From Dehalococcoidia bacterium (GTDB taxonomy: Bacteria > Chloroflexota > Dehalococcoidia > Lucifugimonadales > UBA3495), in assembly GCA_034420695.1 (NCBI GenBank), contig DAOULB010000002.1:151644-215643 (forward strand): DNA of 64,000 nt, written 5' to 3'. Positions 15,005 to 33,635 of the stretch are shown here, piece by piece. Below the pieces are notes generated by a model, which worked only from the letters and a program-made list of their open reading frames with translations, did not search any database and was not told the DNA's origin. The number at the start of each line of letters is the position of its first letter. Within the stretch, counting starts at the first letter, position 1. The position numbers and the translations under genes are program-made.

Positions 15005-16639
15005 TCAAACAAGGGGCAGGGGCTGCTGTGACCCCTCCCGGATGGTCTGCCGCGCCGCTTCGATGAACTGGCCGAACAGCGGATGCGGCCGGTTCGGCCG
15101 GGACCGGAACTCCGGGTGGAACTGCACCCCTACCATAAAAGGATGCTTGGCCACTTCTCCCGTCTCCACCAAGTTCCCGTCCGGCGATACCCCGCCGATG
15201 ATGAACCCCGAATTCTCCAAGGCCTCCCGGTAGGCGTTGTTCAGCTCAAACCGGTGCCGGTGCCGCTCGCTTATCTCCCCTGCCTTGTACGCCGCCATGG
15301 TCCGGGTGTTCGACTGCGGCCGGCAGGGGTAGGCCCCCAGCCGCATCGTCCCGCCAAGGTCCGTCACCGACCGCTGGTCCGGCATTATGTGTATCACCGG
15401 GTCCGGCGTGTCCGGGTCCAGCTCCGACGAGTTCGCCTGCGGCAGCCCCATCACGTTCCGGGCCCACTCTATCACCATCACCTGCAACCCCAGGCAGAGC
15501 CCAAGGTAGGGCACCTGGTGCTCCCGGGCGTACCGCACCGTCTCCACCATCCCCTCCACGCCCCGGGGGCCGAACCCGCCCGGCACCACAATCCCGCAGG
15601 CGTTGGCCAGCAGTTGGTCCGGGCCCTCTCTTTCTATGTCCTCGGAGTGCACCCATTGAATGTCTATGTCCCGGTCGTGGGCCAGCCCCGCGTGCCGCAG
15701 GGCCTCCTTCACCGAGATATAAGAGTCGGGGTACTCCACGTACTTCCCGACCAGCGCAATGGGCAGCTCCTCCTTCATCGTCTTCATCCGCTCCACCATC
15801 GCCGACCAGTCCGCCATGTCCCGCGGCTGCGCCTTCAGCGAAAGGTGGTCGTTGATTATCTCCCCCAGTCCCGCGTCCTCCAGTATCAGCGGCACCTCGT
15901 AAACGTTGTCCACCGTCGTCAGCGGTATCACCGACCCCGAAGGCACGTCGCAGAAGGAGGAAATCTTGCTCCTGATGGAGTCCGGCACCGGGTAGTCGCT
16001 CCGGCAGATGATGGCGTCCGGCTGTATTCCGATGGCCCGCAGCTCCTTCACGCTGTGCTGCGTCGGCTTCGTCTTCAGCTCCGCCGCCGCCGACAAGTAG
16101 GGCAGCAACGTCAGGTGCACGTAGAACACCTTGTCCCGCCCCACGTCGTTCCGTATCTGCCTTATCGCCTCTAGGAACGGCAGCCCCTCGATGTCGCCCA
16201 CCGTCCCGCCGACCTCCACCACGATCACGTCCGCCCCCGACTCGTCGGCTAGCGCGATGATCTTGTCCTTGATCTCGTTGGTCACGTGGGGTACCGCCTG
16301 TATCGTCCCTCCCAGGAAGTCCCCCCGCCGCTCCTTGGCCAGCAGGCTCAGGTACACCTGCCCGGCGGTGAGGTTGGAAGTGCGGGTCAGGTCGGCGTCG
16401 ATGAAGCGTTCGTAGTGCCCCAGGTCCAAGTCCGTCTCCCCGCCGTCGTTGGTGACGAACACCTCTCCGTGCTGGTAGGGCGACATCGTCCCGGGGTCCA
16501 CGTTCAAGTAGGGGTCCAGCTTCAATACGGAGACGGCGATACCGCGGCTTTTCAGGATGCGCCCTATTGAAGCAACGCTTATCCCTTTGCCGATGGAACT
16601 GACTACTCCGCCGGTGACGAAGATATAGTTAGCGGCCAT
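15005..16639 (-). CDS. pyrG: CTP synthase
   Basis: The 544-aa ORF begins YIFVTGGVVSSIGKGI and contains DPYLNVDPGTMSPYQHGEVFVT. Its glutaminase domain has GLCLGLQ and HRHRFE. Confidence 0.97.
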   Translation of the reverse strand: MAANYIFVTGGVVSSIGKGISVASIGRILKSRGIAVSVLKLDPYLNVDPGTMSPYQHGEVFVTNDGGETDLDLGHYERFIDADLTRTSNLTAGQVYLSLLAKERRGDFLGGTIQAVPHVTNEIKDKIIALADESGADVIVVEVGGTVGDIEGLPFLEAIRQIRNDVGRDKVFYVHLTLLPYLSAAAELKTKPTQHSVKELRAIGIQPDAIICRSDYPVPDSIRSKISSFCDVPSGSVIPLTTVDNVYEVPLILEDAGLGEIINDHLSLKAQPRDMADWSAMVERMKTMKEELPIALVGKYVEYPDSYISVKEALRHAGLAHDRDIDIQWVHSEDIEREGPDQLLANACGIVVPGGFGPRGVEGMVETVRYAREHQVPYLGLCLGLQVMVIEWARNVMGLPQANSSELDPDTPDPVIHIMPDQRSVTDLGGTMRLGAYPCRPQSNTRTMAAYKAGEISERHRHRFELNNAYREALENSGFIIGGVSPDGNLVETGEVAKHPFMVGVQFHPEFRSRPNRPHPLFGQFIEAARQTIREGSQQPLPLV

Positions 16640-16933: not shown

Positions 16934-17149
16934 CTACCCCGCCAGGTACAACCCGATAATCGTACCCATCAGGGTTACCCAGCTCCCGCCCATGAACAGC
17001 ACCAAGGCGGTGAGCTTGCGGTCCATCTCCTGGCGCAGGGTGCTGACTTCCGACCGCACCGACTCTATCCCTCCGTTCAGGTCCGACAGCCGGCGGTCCA
17101 CCTGCTCGTAAGCGCCTTCCAGCCTGCTTACTCTCTGCTCCAGCGTCAT
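16934..17149 (-). CDS. Small tail-anchored coiled-coil protein (71 aa)
   Basis: MTLEQRVSRLEGAYEQVDRRLSDLNGGIESVRSEVSTLRQEMDRK is followed by one C-terminal hydrophobic helix, LTALVLFMGGSWVTLMGTIIGLYL. The architecture matches the two upstream genes. Confidence 0.6.
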   Translation of the reverse strand: MTLEQRVSRLEGAYEQVDRRLSDLNGGIESVRSEVSTLRQEMDRKLTALVLFMGGSWVTLMGTIIGLYLAG

Positions 17150-17287
17150 TCCAATACCTGCTGGCCTACTCTACAACGAGACGAAACATACGGCTTCATT
17201 TGAACTATCCTGAAGCCCCTCGAGTTGCCCCCAAAGTCCTCCCCCTCCCCGGGAATGCCACCCCAAGTCCATGAACTTTGCCGCCAG

Positions 17288-17791
17288 CTACCCGCCCCGC
17301 ACAATCAGCGTCACCATCACCCCCACAAGCGCCGCCGCCATACCACCGCCGATCGTCCACGTTGCCAGTATCAGCCGGTCTATCCTTCCATTCACCTGCT
17401 GGAAGCCCGCCGTCGTGTCGGCGTGAAGCCGGTCAACCCGCCCGTTCACCTGGTCAATCCTTCCGTTTACCTGCTGGAAGCCCGCCGTCGTGTCGGCGTG
17501 AAGCTGGTCAATCCGCCCGTTCACTCGGTCCAACCCGGTGGCCATTTCGCCCCGCACCTGCTGGAAGCCTGCCGTCATGTCGGCGTGAAGCTGGTCAGCC
17601 CGCCCGTTCACCTGGTCAACCCGCCCGTTTACCTGCTGCAACCCGGTGGCCATTTCGCCCCGCACCTGCTGGAAGCCCGCCGTCATGTCGGCGTGAAGCT
17701 GGTGCACCAAGGCAGACAGTTCCTCTACCCGGCCCTCCAGGTTGCCCAGGGTCCTGTCGTCCAGGGTCCTGTCTCCCGTATCTTGTGTCAT
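17288..17791 (-). CDS. Repeat-expanded tail-anchored coiled-coil protein (167 aa)
   Basis: The N-terminus is MTQDTGDRTLDDRTLGNLEGR. Repeated units follow (QLHADMTAGFQQVRGEMATGL..VNGR.DQVNGR), then a C-terminal TM helix TIGGGMAAALVGVMVTLIV. The DNA contains near-identical direct repeats, e.g. 17395-17429 = 17470-17504 and 17557-17594 ~ 17665-17702. Confidence 0.7.
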   Translation of the reverse strand: MTQDTGDRTLDDRTLGNLEGRVEELSALVHQLHADMTAGFQQVRGEMATGLQQVNGRVDQVNGRADQLHADMTAGFQQVRGEMATGLDRVNGRIDQLHADTTAGFQQVNGRIDQVNGRVDRLHADTTAGFQQVNGRIDRLILATWTIGGGMAAALVGVMVTLIVRGG

Positions 17792-17870
17792 GCCGCCCCT
17801 TGCTCCAGTTGCGCCAAAGTCATTCCGGCGCCTGATAACCAGTCATACCGTCCGGCTTGGTAAGCAATAC

Positions 17871-18137
17871 CTACCCTCTTTGCAGAATCAGCAACATGAT
17901 CATTACGACAAGACCCGCTGCCACGCCCCCGTTGATGACCACCATTGCCAGTATCAGCCCGTCTATCCGCCCATTCACGCGGTCAAACCCTGCAGTCATC
18001 TCGCCCCGCACCTGCTGGAACCCGGTGGCCATTTCGCCCCGCACCAGGTCAACCCGTCGGTTCACCTGGTCTATCCGCCCTTCCACGTTGCCCAGGGTCC
18101 GGTCGTCCAGGGTCCTGTCTCCCGTATCTCGCGTCAT
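17871..18137 (-). CDS. Tail-anchored coiled-coil protein (88 aa), short paralog of 17288..17791
   Basis: It has the same N-terminus (MTRDTGDRTLDDRTLGNVEGRIDQVN), one copy of the GEMATGFQQVRGEMTAGFDRVNGRID unit, and a C-terminal TM helix. Confidence 0.7.
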   Translation of the reverse strand: MTRDTGDRTLDDRTLGNVEGRIDQVNRRVDLVRGEMATGFQQVRGEMTAGFDRVNGRIDGLILAMVVINGGVAAGLVVMIMLLILQRG

Positions 18138-18330
18138 GCGGCCCCTCGCTCCGGTCGCTCCACGGTCATCCAGGAAGGGTCATTCCGCCGCCCGTTAAGC
18201 GGTCATGCCGTCCGCCAAAGCGATTATACCGCGAAGGACGCGTCCCGCAGGGCGCGCCCCCCTGTCCCCGCCCGCCCCCTCTGTGGCAATATATCGCCCG
18301 TGCGCCATAATATATGGTGCCGACACCCAT

Positions 18331-18397: not shown

Positions 18398-18904
18398 ATG
18401 GACCTGAACCTCTTCATCCAAGACGCCCTCGCCAAGGAACAGGAACTCCTCGACGATGCCCTCGACGGCCTCACCCCCGCCGACCTCGCCTGGCGTCCCG
18501 GCCCCGAAGCCAACCCCATCGGCTGGATCCTCTGGCACATGCTCCGCGTCGAAGACATGTGGTTCCAGTTCTTCATCCAGCGCCAAAACGAAATCTGGGA
18601 GCGCGACGGCTGGAACCAGAAGTTCGGCCTGCCCGCCCGCGACAACGGCTTCGGCCACACCCCCGACCAAGTCGCCGAATTCCCCCTCCTCGACCTCGCC
18701 GAACTCCGCCGCTACGGCCAAGCCGTCCGCCAAGCCACCCTCGACTACCTCGACACCCTGGCTCCCGAAGACTACGACGCCGTCCCCCGGGAACAGCGCC
18801 CCGAAATGTCCGTCGCCGCCGTCTTCCGCCAGATAATCGGCGAACTCTACCAGCACCAAGGCCACATCGCCTACCTCAAGGGCCTCGCCCGCTCCCAACC
18901 CTGA
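18398..18904 (+). CDS. DinB-family (DinB_2/YfiT-like four-helix-bundle) protein
   Basis: ...LDGLTPADLAWRPGPEANPIGWILWHMLRVED...GELYQHQGHIAYLKG shows the typical His-containing helices of the DinB superfamily. Confidence 0.75.
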   Translation: MDLNLFIQDALAKEQELLDDALDGLTPADLAWRPGPEANPIGWILWHMLRVEDMWFQFFIQRQNEIWERDGWNQKFGLPARDNGFGHTPDQVAEFPLLDLAELRRYGQAVRQATLDYLDTLAPEDYDAVPREQRPEMSVAAVFRQIIGELYQHQGHIAYLKGLARSQP

Positions 18905-18930
18905 CCCCCAACCCCCGCCAACCGGCCATA

Positions 18931-18966
18931 CCGTAGGGGCGACCCTTGTGGTCGCCCGCCGCCCGC
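18931..18966. repeat. REP-like GC-rich hairpin element, copy B, downstream of the DinB-family gene
   Basis: The sequence is CCGTAGGGGCGACCCTTGTGGTCGCCCGCCGCCCG. GGGCGACC (18937-44) pairs with GGTCGCCC (18950-57) as 8 perfect bp around a CTTGT loop. Confidence 0.65.
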
Positions 18967-19185
18967 GGTCGCCCACCCGCGGCCCCCGCCCCCCGGGCTA
19001 CTGACACTTCCCGCTGGCCTCCTCCCCCGTCCCTCCCTTATCATGGTTGTAGCCGTCTCGCCCTGCATCGCTCACCCCCGAAAAGGGCAACCCCAAAAGA
19101 CCAACCCCAAAAGGGCAGCCAAACGCCAGTCAAAAATGCCAAGAAGACCAGCCGGAAAGAACCCCCAACAACCCCGCTCCGCCCC

Positions 19186-19335
19186 AAAATGTCCCTTTTT
19201 GTCCCACATGTCCGTTTTTGTCCCGATTTTCCCGAATTTCAAAGCTGCCAGCTAGGACAAACCGGGACAAAATTGGACAAACCGGCCCAAAACAACGACA
19301 AACTCGGCCAAAACCAAGACAGACCGGGTCAAAAC
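19186..19335. repeat. Array of about 10-11-bp-phased short motifs in inverted orientation: TTTGTCC(C) on the left arm and GGACAAA-like on the right arm
   Basis: Left-arm GTCC(C/G) cores lie at about 19191, 19201, 19210, 19220 and 19231. Right-arm G(G)ACAAA-like cores lie at about 19254, 19265, 19275, 19296, 19317 and 19327. TTTTGTCCCG (19217-26) is the exact reverse complement of CGGGACAAAA (19263-72). Confidence 0.6.
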
Positions 19336-19383
19336 TGGCAACACCGGGACCCGGTAACCCGCGTCCCTCCGCCGCCCTCCCGC

Positions 19384-19421
19384 GTGACCAACGAGCGTGA
19401 CCAACGAGCGTGACCAACGAG
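19384..19421. repeat. Tandem 13-mer repeat (GTGACCAACGAGC, 3 copies)
   Basis: Read directly from the sequence. Confidence 0.9.
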
Positions 19422-19671
19422 ATCGCCGCCCCGCGCCCCCTCCCCCCATGCGCCCTCCCCCAAACACACCCCCTCCACCGCCCCCCGGCGGCCCGCGCCG
19501 GTAATAGTCCGGTAATTCTAGGCAACCTCTTAACAACCCCCGTCATAACATCCAGGGTTGCTGGTCCCCATCATCCCGCAGGGGCGGCTTTCAAACCCGC
19601 CCTGCCCTGGGCCGTCAATTCCGGAAAGGGCCTGGGCAAACAACCCCGCACTCCCTTCTCCCTCGCCCGAA

Positions 19672-19738
19672 GGATGGAAGGATGGAAGGATGGAAGGATG
19701 GCAGAATGGAAGGATGGCAGAAGGTCAGGATGAAGGTG
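19672..19738. repeat. Tandem repeat of GGATGGAA (3 copies) followed by GGATGGCAGAA(TGGAA) variants
   Basis: Read directly from the sequence. The ORFs crossing it translate to MEGWKDGRMEGW low-complexity peptides. Confidence 0.9.
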
Positions 19739-19857
19739 GCCATGCCCGCCCCCCTCGTCAACCGGCGCCCAAGTCATGGCCCTTGTACATGGCAAAACCC
19801 CAAGGAGTATAATCAGTGCGGGCCATTCACCCGGACCTTGGCACCGGACCCCGGCGC

Positions 19858-19913
19858 CAGTCCCGGTAAACCAGTCCCGGTGAACCAGTCCCGGTAGACC
19901 AGTCCCGGCAAAC
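19858..19913. repeat. Tandem 14-mer repeat (CCAGTCCCGGTNAA, 4 copies)
   Basis: Read directly: ccagtcccggtaaa ccagtcccggtgaa ccagtcccggtaga ccagtcccggcaaa. Confidence 0.9.
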
Positions 19914-19974
19914 GAAACAAGGAGGGCGGCGGTTGGGAATAGCTCAAATTGACCTAACCCGTGGTGCAAAGACG

Positions 19975-20003
19975 TTGACACAAATACCCTCTGATGTTAG
20001 ATT
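19975..20003 (+). promoter_or_regulatory. Sigma70-type promoter with an extended -10 for the giant cadherin-repeat gene
   Basis: TTGACA (19975-80), a 17-nt spacer ending in TGt, then TAGATT (19998-20003). It lies about 68 nt upstream of the ATG at 20071. Confidence 0.6.
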
Positions 20004-20070
20004 TTCAGGCATTGTGCGACTCTAGGATTGGGAGAGCCGCGCTAGCAAGAACGCCGAAGTGAGGAATTAC

Positions 20071-33326: not shown

Positions 33327-33635
33327 TCAGTTGCCCAGCGGCCTAACCAAGGAAGTAACCAGGGTGGCCAAGGTAGTGCCCAAGAGGCCCATGCCCAGCC
33401 ATATCAGCTTGTCGACCTTAGCCTCCACCCGGTCAATCCGGGAATTGAGTTGGTCGTCCAGGCGATCCACCCGGGCGTTGAGCTGGCGCTGGCCCTCCAT
33501 CAACTCACCTAAGGTCTGGGCGGTATTTATCGCCGATTCGGATGCTATGTACTTTACCCCTGGCGCAAAGGCCACCGGATATGCGGCCACGTATGCCTGC
33601 CAAAATTGTACTATACCCAAGGGGTCGTTTGACAC
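33327..33635 (-). CDS. Tail-anchored coiled-coil protein, distant member of the 16934-18137 family
   Basis: ...MEGQRQLNARVDRLDDQLNSRIDRVEAKVDKL is followed by a single C-terminal TM helix, IWLGMGLLGTTLATLVTSLV. The true start may be the internal ATG at 33500, giving 57 aa. Confidence 0.55.
   Translation of the reverse strand: MSNDPLGIVQFWQAYVAAYPVAFAPGVKYIASESAINTAQTLGELMEGQRQLNARVDRLDDQLNSRIDRVEAKVDKLIWLGMGLLGTTLATLVTSLVRPLGN

Follow-up and report, generated by a model that had tools for sequence, protein, structure and literature searches.

Within the stretch of DNA analysed here (the window, 64,000 nt, corresponding to C2:151644-215643 of a 3.43-Mb, 61-contig assembly with 60.7% G+C from an uncultured, SAR202-type member of the Dehalococcoidia, Chloroflexota), three consecutive minus-strand open reading frames (ORFs) encode products of 71, 167, and 88 amino acids (aa), referred to below as p71 (16934..17149, -), p167 (17288..17791, -), and p88 (17871..18137, -). 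A first-pass annotation had described these ORFs, quoted peptide repeats from them, and reported a shared N-terminus, MT(Q/R)DTGDRTLDDRTLGN(L/V)EGR; the ORFs are present as described, and the repeats and the N-terminus were both found in the translations. The p71 protein carries the cap MTLEQRVSRLEGAYEQVDRRL and the anchor LTALVLFMGGSWVTLMGTIIGLYLAG, separated by a cap-to-anchor distance of 36 residues. The p167 protein is composed of a 17-residue tip, a 122-residue stalk, and the anchor LILATWTIGGGMAAALVGVMVTLIV followed by RGG, while p88 shares the tip of p167 and has a short stalk, with 43 residues between cap and anchor when counted from the homologous position. Structure prediction, which the first-pass annotation had proposed, was carried out with AlphaFold2 on single chains of p71 and p167 and gave one unbroken helix for each, covering residues 3-70 of p71 (predicted local distance difference test score, pLDDT, 91) and residues 6-166 of p167 (pLDDT 82.5).

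The rod is built from 7- and 11-residue units. Hydrophobic residues of the stalks, as read from the sequence, follow 3-4 spacings (heptads, e.g. VNGRIDQ) that are broken by 4-4-3 spacings (hendecads, e.g. LHADMTAGFQQ and VRGEMATGLQQ); the earlier description of the repeats as heptad-like was therefore right about the heptads but incomplete, since these are mixed with hendecads. With N denoting a heptad and H and R denoting two hendecads, the 122-residue stalk of p167, which has 8 heptads and 6 hendecads in all, consists of two lead heptads followed by H R N N H R N H N N H N, and that of p88 reads N N R R N. At the C-terminus, an uncharged stretch of 24-26 residues forms the predicted anchor, after which there are 0 (p71), 3 (p167), or 2 (p88) residues, in agreement in silico with the single C-terminal transmembrane helix noted previously. 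Small-xxx-small motifs can be read in the anchors of all three proteins (GTIIG in p71, GVAAG in p88, and GMAAA/ALVG in p167). The N-termini of p71, p167, and p88 are hydrophilic and carry no signal peptide, and together with the lone hydrophobic helix at the extreme C-terminus these features place the proteins, in silico, in the operational class of tail-anchored proteins.

Unit-wise variation of repeats, genes, and stalk length

Repetition is visible at the DNA level within p167, for which Tandem Repeats Finder detected a period of 108 bp (score 351; 1.9 copies with 92% matches) and one of 75 bp (3.4 copies with 76%), along with periods of 21 bp. The 108-bp tandem duplication (17504..17703) corresponds to 36 residues (11+11+7+7) and the 75-bp tandem duplication (17377..17524) to 25 residues (7+7+11). 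By diagonal scan, the best copies of the former are 17504-17595 and 17612-17703 (85/92 identical, 92%), and those of the latter are 17377-17449 and 17452-17524 (68/73 identical, 93%). Thus, the 75- and 108-bp periods called in the first-pass annotation are correct, whereas its coordinates for them (17395-17504 and 17557-17702) agree only roughly and its "near-perfect" repeats are 92-93% identical. A further repeat family, D2 (105 nt at 85%), comprises the 5' module of p167 (leader and first codons, 17724..17828) and a second copy that lies in front of p88 and extends into it (18070..18174).

The genes are paralogs, as had been proposed, with p88 and p167 closely related (61% protein identity over residues 1-59, in addition to the 105 nt of 5' DNA) and p71 more distant. 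A profile made from LEGAYEQVD-type proteins alone detected p71 with an E value of 1e-27, p88 with 1e-6, and p167 with 6e-5, and one protein of the family, P0029, joins a p71-type cap to a p167-type anchor. Because of this cross-detection and of the mixed protein, the three genes form one family in which p71 is the distant member.

The same locus was found on two metagenome contigs, L002 (flank identity 97.5%) and L001 (about 90%), and these close strains differ in how many repeats and genes they have and in the order of the genes. The window has the order DinB, p88, p167, p71, pyrG; L002 has DinB, a 118-aa gene, p71; and L001 has DinB, a 71-aa gene, a 109-aa gene, a relic of the p71 3' end, pyrG. 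The p167 orthologs of 118 aa (P0002, from L002) and 109 aa (P0003, from L001) have the stalks H R N N H N and H N H N N N', respectively, and every length difference among the p167 orthologs is in frame and comprises whole units (47 residues, being 11+7+7+11+11, then 11, then 54 residues). The suggestion that repeat copy number varies was therefore borne out by indels of whole 7- or 11-residue units, and the repeat number is not fixed. The 118-aa gene of L002 matches p88 DNA down to window position 18087 and from there onward p167 with fewer units, an arrangement that looks like a deletion through recombination between the two 5' modules, the D2 copies being the likely substrate. Unequal recombination between repeats that are multiples of 21 and 33 bp, and between the shared 5' ends of the paralogs, adds or removes whole units and whole genes, and it changes the length of the rod yet keeps the helical phase between cap and anchor. 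The region upstream of pyrG in six congeners holds other genes and no family member.

A rule of the same kind governs stalk length across the family. Measured from the L of LEGAY to where the anchor starts, the cap-to-anchor distances of 271 unique proteins peaked at 29, 36, 40, 43, 47, 54, 58, 65, and 76 residues, and among the 231 proteins with distances of 29-69 residues, 206 (89%) fell on the series 29+7a+11b, a formula that allows 39% of the integers in this range; the sequences are related and so are not independent samples, although the peaks come from many different genomes. The cap-to-anchor distances of p71 (36) and p88 (43, homologous position) coincide with two of these peaks, and that of p167 is 122 = 8x7 + 6x11. 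The 29+7a+11b rule implies conservation of the helical phase from cap to anchor, which is what would be expected if one continuous coiled coil extended from the cap into the membrane. The idea of a coiled-coil ruler raised in the first-pass annotation fits such quantised stalk lengths, and the family provides a clean natural case of coiled-coil length evolving in phase-preserving quanta of 7 and 11 residues.

Selection at the locus was assessed from the ratio of nonsynonymous to synonymous substitution rates (dN/dS) in comparisons with the L001 and L002 orthologs, which involve small but mutually consistent counts. The ratio was 0.27 for p71 (versus the L001 ortholog), 0.16 (versus P0003) and 0.23 (versus P0002) for p167, and 0.07 for pyrG. 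In addition, the DNA upstream of family genes was scanned for expression signals at 78 further loci, against control windows of mostly coding DNA: promoter-like sites (at least 9/12 matches) occurred at 24% of loci versus 1.7% of control windows, and Shine-Dalgarno-like motifs at 64% of loci versus 21% of controls. Small repetitive ORFs in GC-rich DNA, where spurious long ORFs are common, could in principle be unexpressed, non-functional by-products of repeat DNA. This explanation is barely credible, however, given the purifying selection, the restriction of indels to in-frame whole units, a cap motif that is invariant across the family, and the hundreds of homologs that have the same architecture. 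By these comparisons, the ORFs of the cluster are real genes under purifying selection.

Family distribution and genomic surroundings

The genome search that the first-pass annotation had recommended revealed at least 13 tail-anchored family members in the source genome and 0-25 copies per genome in 41 relatives, 14 of which carry the family, as do 3 of 7 genomes of the genus (the source genome included). Two sub-types can be distinguished. The first, exemplified by p71, has the cap (M..E.)RVSRLEGAYEQVDRRL and the anchor ..GSWVTLM.., and the second, exemplified by p167 and p88, has the cap ..LEGRVEEL.. and the anchor ..W.IGGG..AALV..; among the genomes searched, the p167 sub-type was confined to the source genome and one congener. 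Conservation is strongest in the soluble N-terminal cap, above that of the anchor. Co-oriented tandem arrays of 2-5 family genes were present at 15 of the 79 loci used for neighbourhood analysis.

A profile search of 5.8 billion proteins returned 443 hits, one of them a protein of the Ardenticatenaceae, and an exhaustive search of representatives gave 241 clusters (50% identity) at E<=1e-10. The motif LEGAYEQV identified 272 relatives in 185,579 species genomes, and the best 80 of these 272 were all from Chloroflexota, mostly Dehalococcoidia, with SAR202 and Tepidiformaceae also represented. On the evidence of these searches, the family is unnamed and restricted to Chloroflexota. Where members bear a name at all, it is "hypothetical protein" or one of the erroneous labels MtrG, FlaC, and FliD assigned by JGI; thus P0013, P0080, P0086, and P0110, which are members or look-alikes, are entered as the archaellum component FlaC, the flagellar capping protein FliD, or subunit G of tetrahydromethanopterin S-methyltransferase. 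These labels look like coiled-coil mis-annotations. No paper linking tail-anchored coiled-coil proteins with Chloroflexi was found in the literature.

A distant member of the family lies elsewhere in the window (33327-33635, -), with 102 aa (57 aa if counted from an internal Met), RVDRLDDQLNSRIDRVEAKVDKL repeats, and a C-terminal anchor, and was detected by the hidden Markov model of the family with an E value of 2e-5. In OY761541.1 (L003/L008), a 3.76-Mb metagenome-assembled genome of the Dehalococcoidia, tandem family genes of 111, 90, and 71 aa (L003 5283-6216) lie within a type I restriction-modification operon, with hsdR on one side and hsdS/hsdM on the other; in this array, the first and third genes have the same cap and anchor and differ only in their stalk repeats.

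Downstream of the cluster and in the same orientation, as the first-pass annotation stated, is pyrG (15005-16639, -). A sigma-70-type promoter with 12/12 matches (TTGACA-18-TATAAT) is located between p71 and pyrG at 16818-16789 (-); pyrG therefore does not rely on read-through from the cluster, and co-transcription with it is not required. Upstream ORFs (uORFs) of 11 codons precede both of the larger genes: MTLAQLEQGAA (17788..17823, -) in front of p167 and MTVERPERGAA (18134..18169, -) in front of p88, each with a TGA stop that overlaps the start codon of the gene it precedes (ATGA). Both the uORF length and the ATGA overlap are kept upstream of p167, p88, P0002, and P0003 (L001 about 1016-1051; L002 about 763-798), and the uORFs of all four p167/p88-type genes conform to the pattern MT(L/V)(E/A)(Q/R).E..AA. 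The L001 uORF starts with MTLEQ and thereby resembles a p71-type start. The uORF may be a relic of an older, MTLEQ-type start, or else a leader for translational coupling. No Rfam match and no tRNA were found in the cluster region, and no compositional anomaly was seen at the cluster.

On the other side, a divergent gene (18398-18904, +) encodes a DinB/mycothiol-transferase-like protein (PF12867, E 5e-20). A DinB-family protein also adjoins a family gene, on its downstream side, at a second, unrelated locus (L005 6226-6885). DinB-type genes are very abundant in SAR202, and because they are so many the adjacency may be due to chance. Beyond the divergent gene, the ~1.1 kb at 18905-20058, between the DinB-like gene and a 1916-aa cadherin-like protein, contains no convincing ORF and no tRNA and is strongly skewed between strands, with the GC skew falling to -0.39 and the AT skew rising to +0.45. 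The statement that no phage genes are nearby was accurate for about 5 kb around the cluster, where the neighbours are rho, a transaldolase-like gene, pyrG, and the DinB/mycothiol-transferase-like gene. Clustering of neighbours over the 79 loci yielded only enzyme families that are expanded in SAR202 generally, together with spurious ORFs of high GC content; no conserved neighbour emerged.

Topology, oligomeric state, and proposed role

We infer that the proteins are tail-anchored with the rod in the cytoplasm (N-in), because family members have on average 3.1 K/R in the 15 residues before the anchor versus about 1 after it, because about 92% of 252 family proteins have a C-terminal tail of 0-3 residues, and because the N-domain is 35% charged with 8-14 Arg. 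The same N-domain has a median net charge of -3, and this mild acidity would suit rods pointing outward (N-out, C-in), that is, surface stalks or spacers between the membrane and a protein surface layer whose length is driven by phage or host pressure. Outward rods would also agree with the single K or R in which many family members end after the anchor, with the giant cadherin-like surface proteins found a few kb away in the window and in some relatives, and with the polymorphism of length and copy number among strains, which is typical of surface proteins. However, a domain of 45-139 residues with such a charge and arginine content would need to cross the membrane in a protein that has no signal peptide, and the side of the anchor richer in K/R is the N-terminal one. 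Furthermore, genes for giant surface proteins are not enriched near the family (3/11 loci within 5 kb versus 22% background), and the dN/dS values of 0.16-0.27 give no sign of diversifying selection. An outward orientation is thus decidedly unlikely.

As for the oligomeric state, R-h-x-x-h-E has been described as a trimerisation motif (PMC6173795), and the near-invariant cap segment R6-V-S-R-L-E11 fits it. The family also produced sub-threshold matches to trimeric coils, namely to TolA_bind_tri (PF16331, the CpoB domain) in 33 of the 62 sequences that make up the family profile (A2), to HSBP1, and to CLZ. Among solved structures, a sequence profile gave weak matches to the trimeric coils of HA2, reovirus sigma-1, and trimeric autotransporter fragments, and to Lpp; Foldseek with the single-helix model returned nothing. 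Together with the small-xxx-small motif in each anchor, these resemblances slightly favour a trimer.

The structural model that we derive from these observations, to which we would assign an even chance of being right, is that of cytoplasm-facing, tail-anchored, probably trimeric rods that evolve in quanta of 7 and 11 residues. The chain would be inserted post-translationally as a tail-anchored protein, with its helix left in the cytoplasm, and would form a parallel, probably homotrimeric, coiled coil with a register that continues into the membrane helices. The outcome would be a rigid rod that holds its conserved cap or tip, at the N-terminus, a fixed distance away from the membrane, with a calculated length (1.5 Å per residue) of about 6-7 nm for p71 and p88 and about 20 nm for p167. 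The cap may then act as a docking surface, with paralogs of different length forming a graded set.

Several findings weigh against this model. The p167 and p88 proteins do not have the full R-h-x-x-h-E motif and show only R-h-x-x-h-(S/N); the terminal K or R of many members would, if considered alone, favour the C-in orientation; and oligomeric state and topology are both deduced from the protein sequences alone. The family is missing from 27 of the 41 relatives and from 4 of the 7 genus genomes, a patchy presence from which it follows that it is dispensable. No conserved neighbour or partner gene accompanies it that would directly support a role as scaffold or tether.

A more specific version of the model is that of an undescribed class of "length-coded" rods in Chloroflexota, in which tail-anchored homotrimers would hold the cap at discrete distances of 29+7a+11b residues (roughly 4-20 nm) and p71, p88, and p167 would serve as independent rulers or tethers that are re-tuned between strains by unit-wise recombination. 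Paralogs of unequal length would be unable to co-assemble, since cap and anchor must both stay aligned. We regard this version as speculative and rather unlikely, but if it were true these wall-less bacteria might use the rods to organise a cortical layer. Should they prove to be rulers or tethers, they would hint at an organising principle not yet recognised at the membrane of SAR202 and Dehalococcoidia and would be a source of natural modular rods for protein design. If they are not rulers, there would still be a correctable MtrG mis-annotation and the definition of a family by its LEGAYEQVD cap plus tail anchor. Small tail-anchored proteins of bacteria are poorly catalogued, and Chloroflexota have unusual envelopes and few genetic tools; the present family is an abundant one, reaching 25 copies in a single genome, and its recombination is visible between near-identical strains at a single locus.

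Comparison with known families

Assignment to families in Pfam, NCBIfam, PHROGs, and PADLOC was rejected, as these collections gave only coiled-coil noise below the cut-offs (33.5 bits for PF07798, 34.7 for PF10779, 25.4 for PF05957, and 50.65 for TIGR01149). Membership of p167 in HSBP1 was likewise rejected: its score of 28.9 versus 28.6 bits reflects a compositional match to a 51-residue trimeric coil. MtrG (TIGR01149/COG4064) is also a small protein with a C-terminal membrane helix, but the three proteins scored only 10-12 bits (12.3 for p71 and 10.4 for p88), no mtr operon was seen in the vicinity, and the source bacterium is no methanogen. The CpoB/YbgF trimerisation domain, HSBP1, and Lpp resemble the present family in that they are its commonest sub-threshold matches, and the cap contains R-h-x-x-h-E; they are, however, periplasmic or soluble and have no tail anchor, and the likeness is one of coiled-coil sequence only.

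XhlA (PF10779), from the lysis cassette of Bacillus PBSX, is likewise a protein of about 70-90 aa in which an N-terminal coiled coil is followed by a transmembrane helix at the C-terminus, and the first-pass annotation had considered kinship with it or with holin-associated proteins. More generally, the family could consist of small membrane-active proteins (XhlA-like lysis helpers, holin-type proteins, type I toxins, or exclusion factors) in which the coil merely oligomerises a damaging helix. Small size, the tail anchor, multiple copies, and patchy distribution would all be in keeping with this, as would the relative whose type I restriction system has three copies between its hsdR and hsdS genes, the weak matches of p167 to two phage families of unknown function (phrog_5225, E 9e-9; phrog_6701, E 1e-8), and the XhlA scores of distant paralogs (12-22 bits, the best in the genome being 21.8 bits on another ORF), which are below threshold. 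Against this, PF10779 had no hit on p71, p167, or p88; searches of 50,697 phage records and of IMG/VR turned up no relatives; neither a holin nor an endolysin gene adjoins the cluster, and no other lysis-cassette or prophage context surrounds it; and the PADLOC matches are coiled-coil noise. Moreover, conservation is strongest in the soluble cap and not in the anchor, and a phase-preserving quantisation of length is hard to explain for a toxin. Kinship with XhlA or holins was accordingly not upheld, and we strongly doubt a membrane-active function.

A parallel in overall plan is offered by ElaB, YqjD, and YgaM of Escherichia coli, stress-type C-tail-anchored proteins associated with ribosome tethering and with membrane protection in stationary phase or under oxidative stress; ElaB has been described as C-tail-anchored, helical, and about 100 aa long (PMC6389858). 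A function of this kind would be a special case of a cytoplasmic tether. Like the present proteins, these are helical, C-tail-anchored paralogs of about 100 aa that have no signal peptide and occur several to a genome, they face the cytoplasm as the present rods probably do, and the DinB/mycothiol-transferase-like stress enzyme divergent from the cluster, with the DinB-like protein that follows a family gene in L005, would agree with a part in stress. That adjacency may be a chance one, however, and ElaB-type proteins have neither quantised repeat units nor a LEGAYEQVD cap. There is also no sequence match: DUF883 (PF05957) matched no family member in the genome, its best scores (12.6-14 bits) being on unrelated ORFs. 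An ElaB-like function is therefore unlikely.

The most similar architecture is that of the DUF1640/CCDC90-like proteins (PF07798), which comprise MCUR1, CCDC90B, yeast homologs, and prokaryotic members (PMC4786415, PMC7519068), some of the latter being small, and which share with the present family a coiled-coil stalk ending in a C-terminal transmembrane helix. In DUF1640, the stalk starts with a beta-layer motif, [aliphatic]-A-T-K-[polar]-[D/E] (PMC4786415). In contrast, p71, p167, and p88 start directly with the coil or a 17-residue tip and lack both the head domain (profile positions 1-70, with FDT..VK.L..AGF..AQAEA in the copies of relatives) and the ATK beta-layer, and their stalk is a variable array of 7- and 11-residue units. 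PF07798 gave no match to p71, p167, or p88 at E<=1 and matched 3 of the 62 profile members at E<0.01. The link is further weakened by PF07798 scores below the cut-off and by an hhalign comparison of A2 with A4, a very shallow profile of three head-bearing DUF1640 proteins from relatives, which returned a probability of 0.7% and an E value of 0.081 over 19 anchor columns only.

Nevertheless, intermediate forms are found. In the source genome, the paralog C42:82662-83102 joins a LEGAY cap to the beta-layer motif VATKAD and 11-residue DIAEVKAEIAELRAESKT repeats and is the sole genomic match to PF07798, at a sub-threshold 22.8-24.8 bits over stalk and anchor (22.8 for C42:82701-82997); in evolutionary terms, it may connect the family to DUF1640. 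From a relative, a headless protein (L105) that reads RLTRLETSHEHLATKEDI scored 29.4 bits, and head-bearing DUF1640 genes are present in three relatives, all three of which also carry the present family. DUF1640 is thus the closest known architecture and a possible distant relative, with homology unproven, and is not the family to which these genes belong. By analogy with it, and with low certainty, p71, p167, and p88 may be membrane-anchored scaffolds or tethers, the headless counterpart of DUF1640/MCUR1-type stalks.

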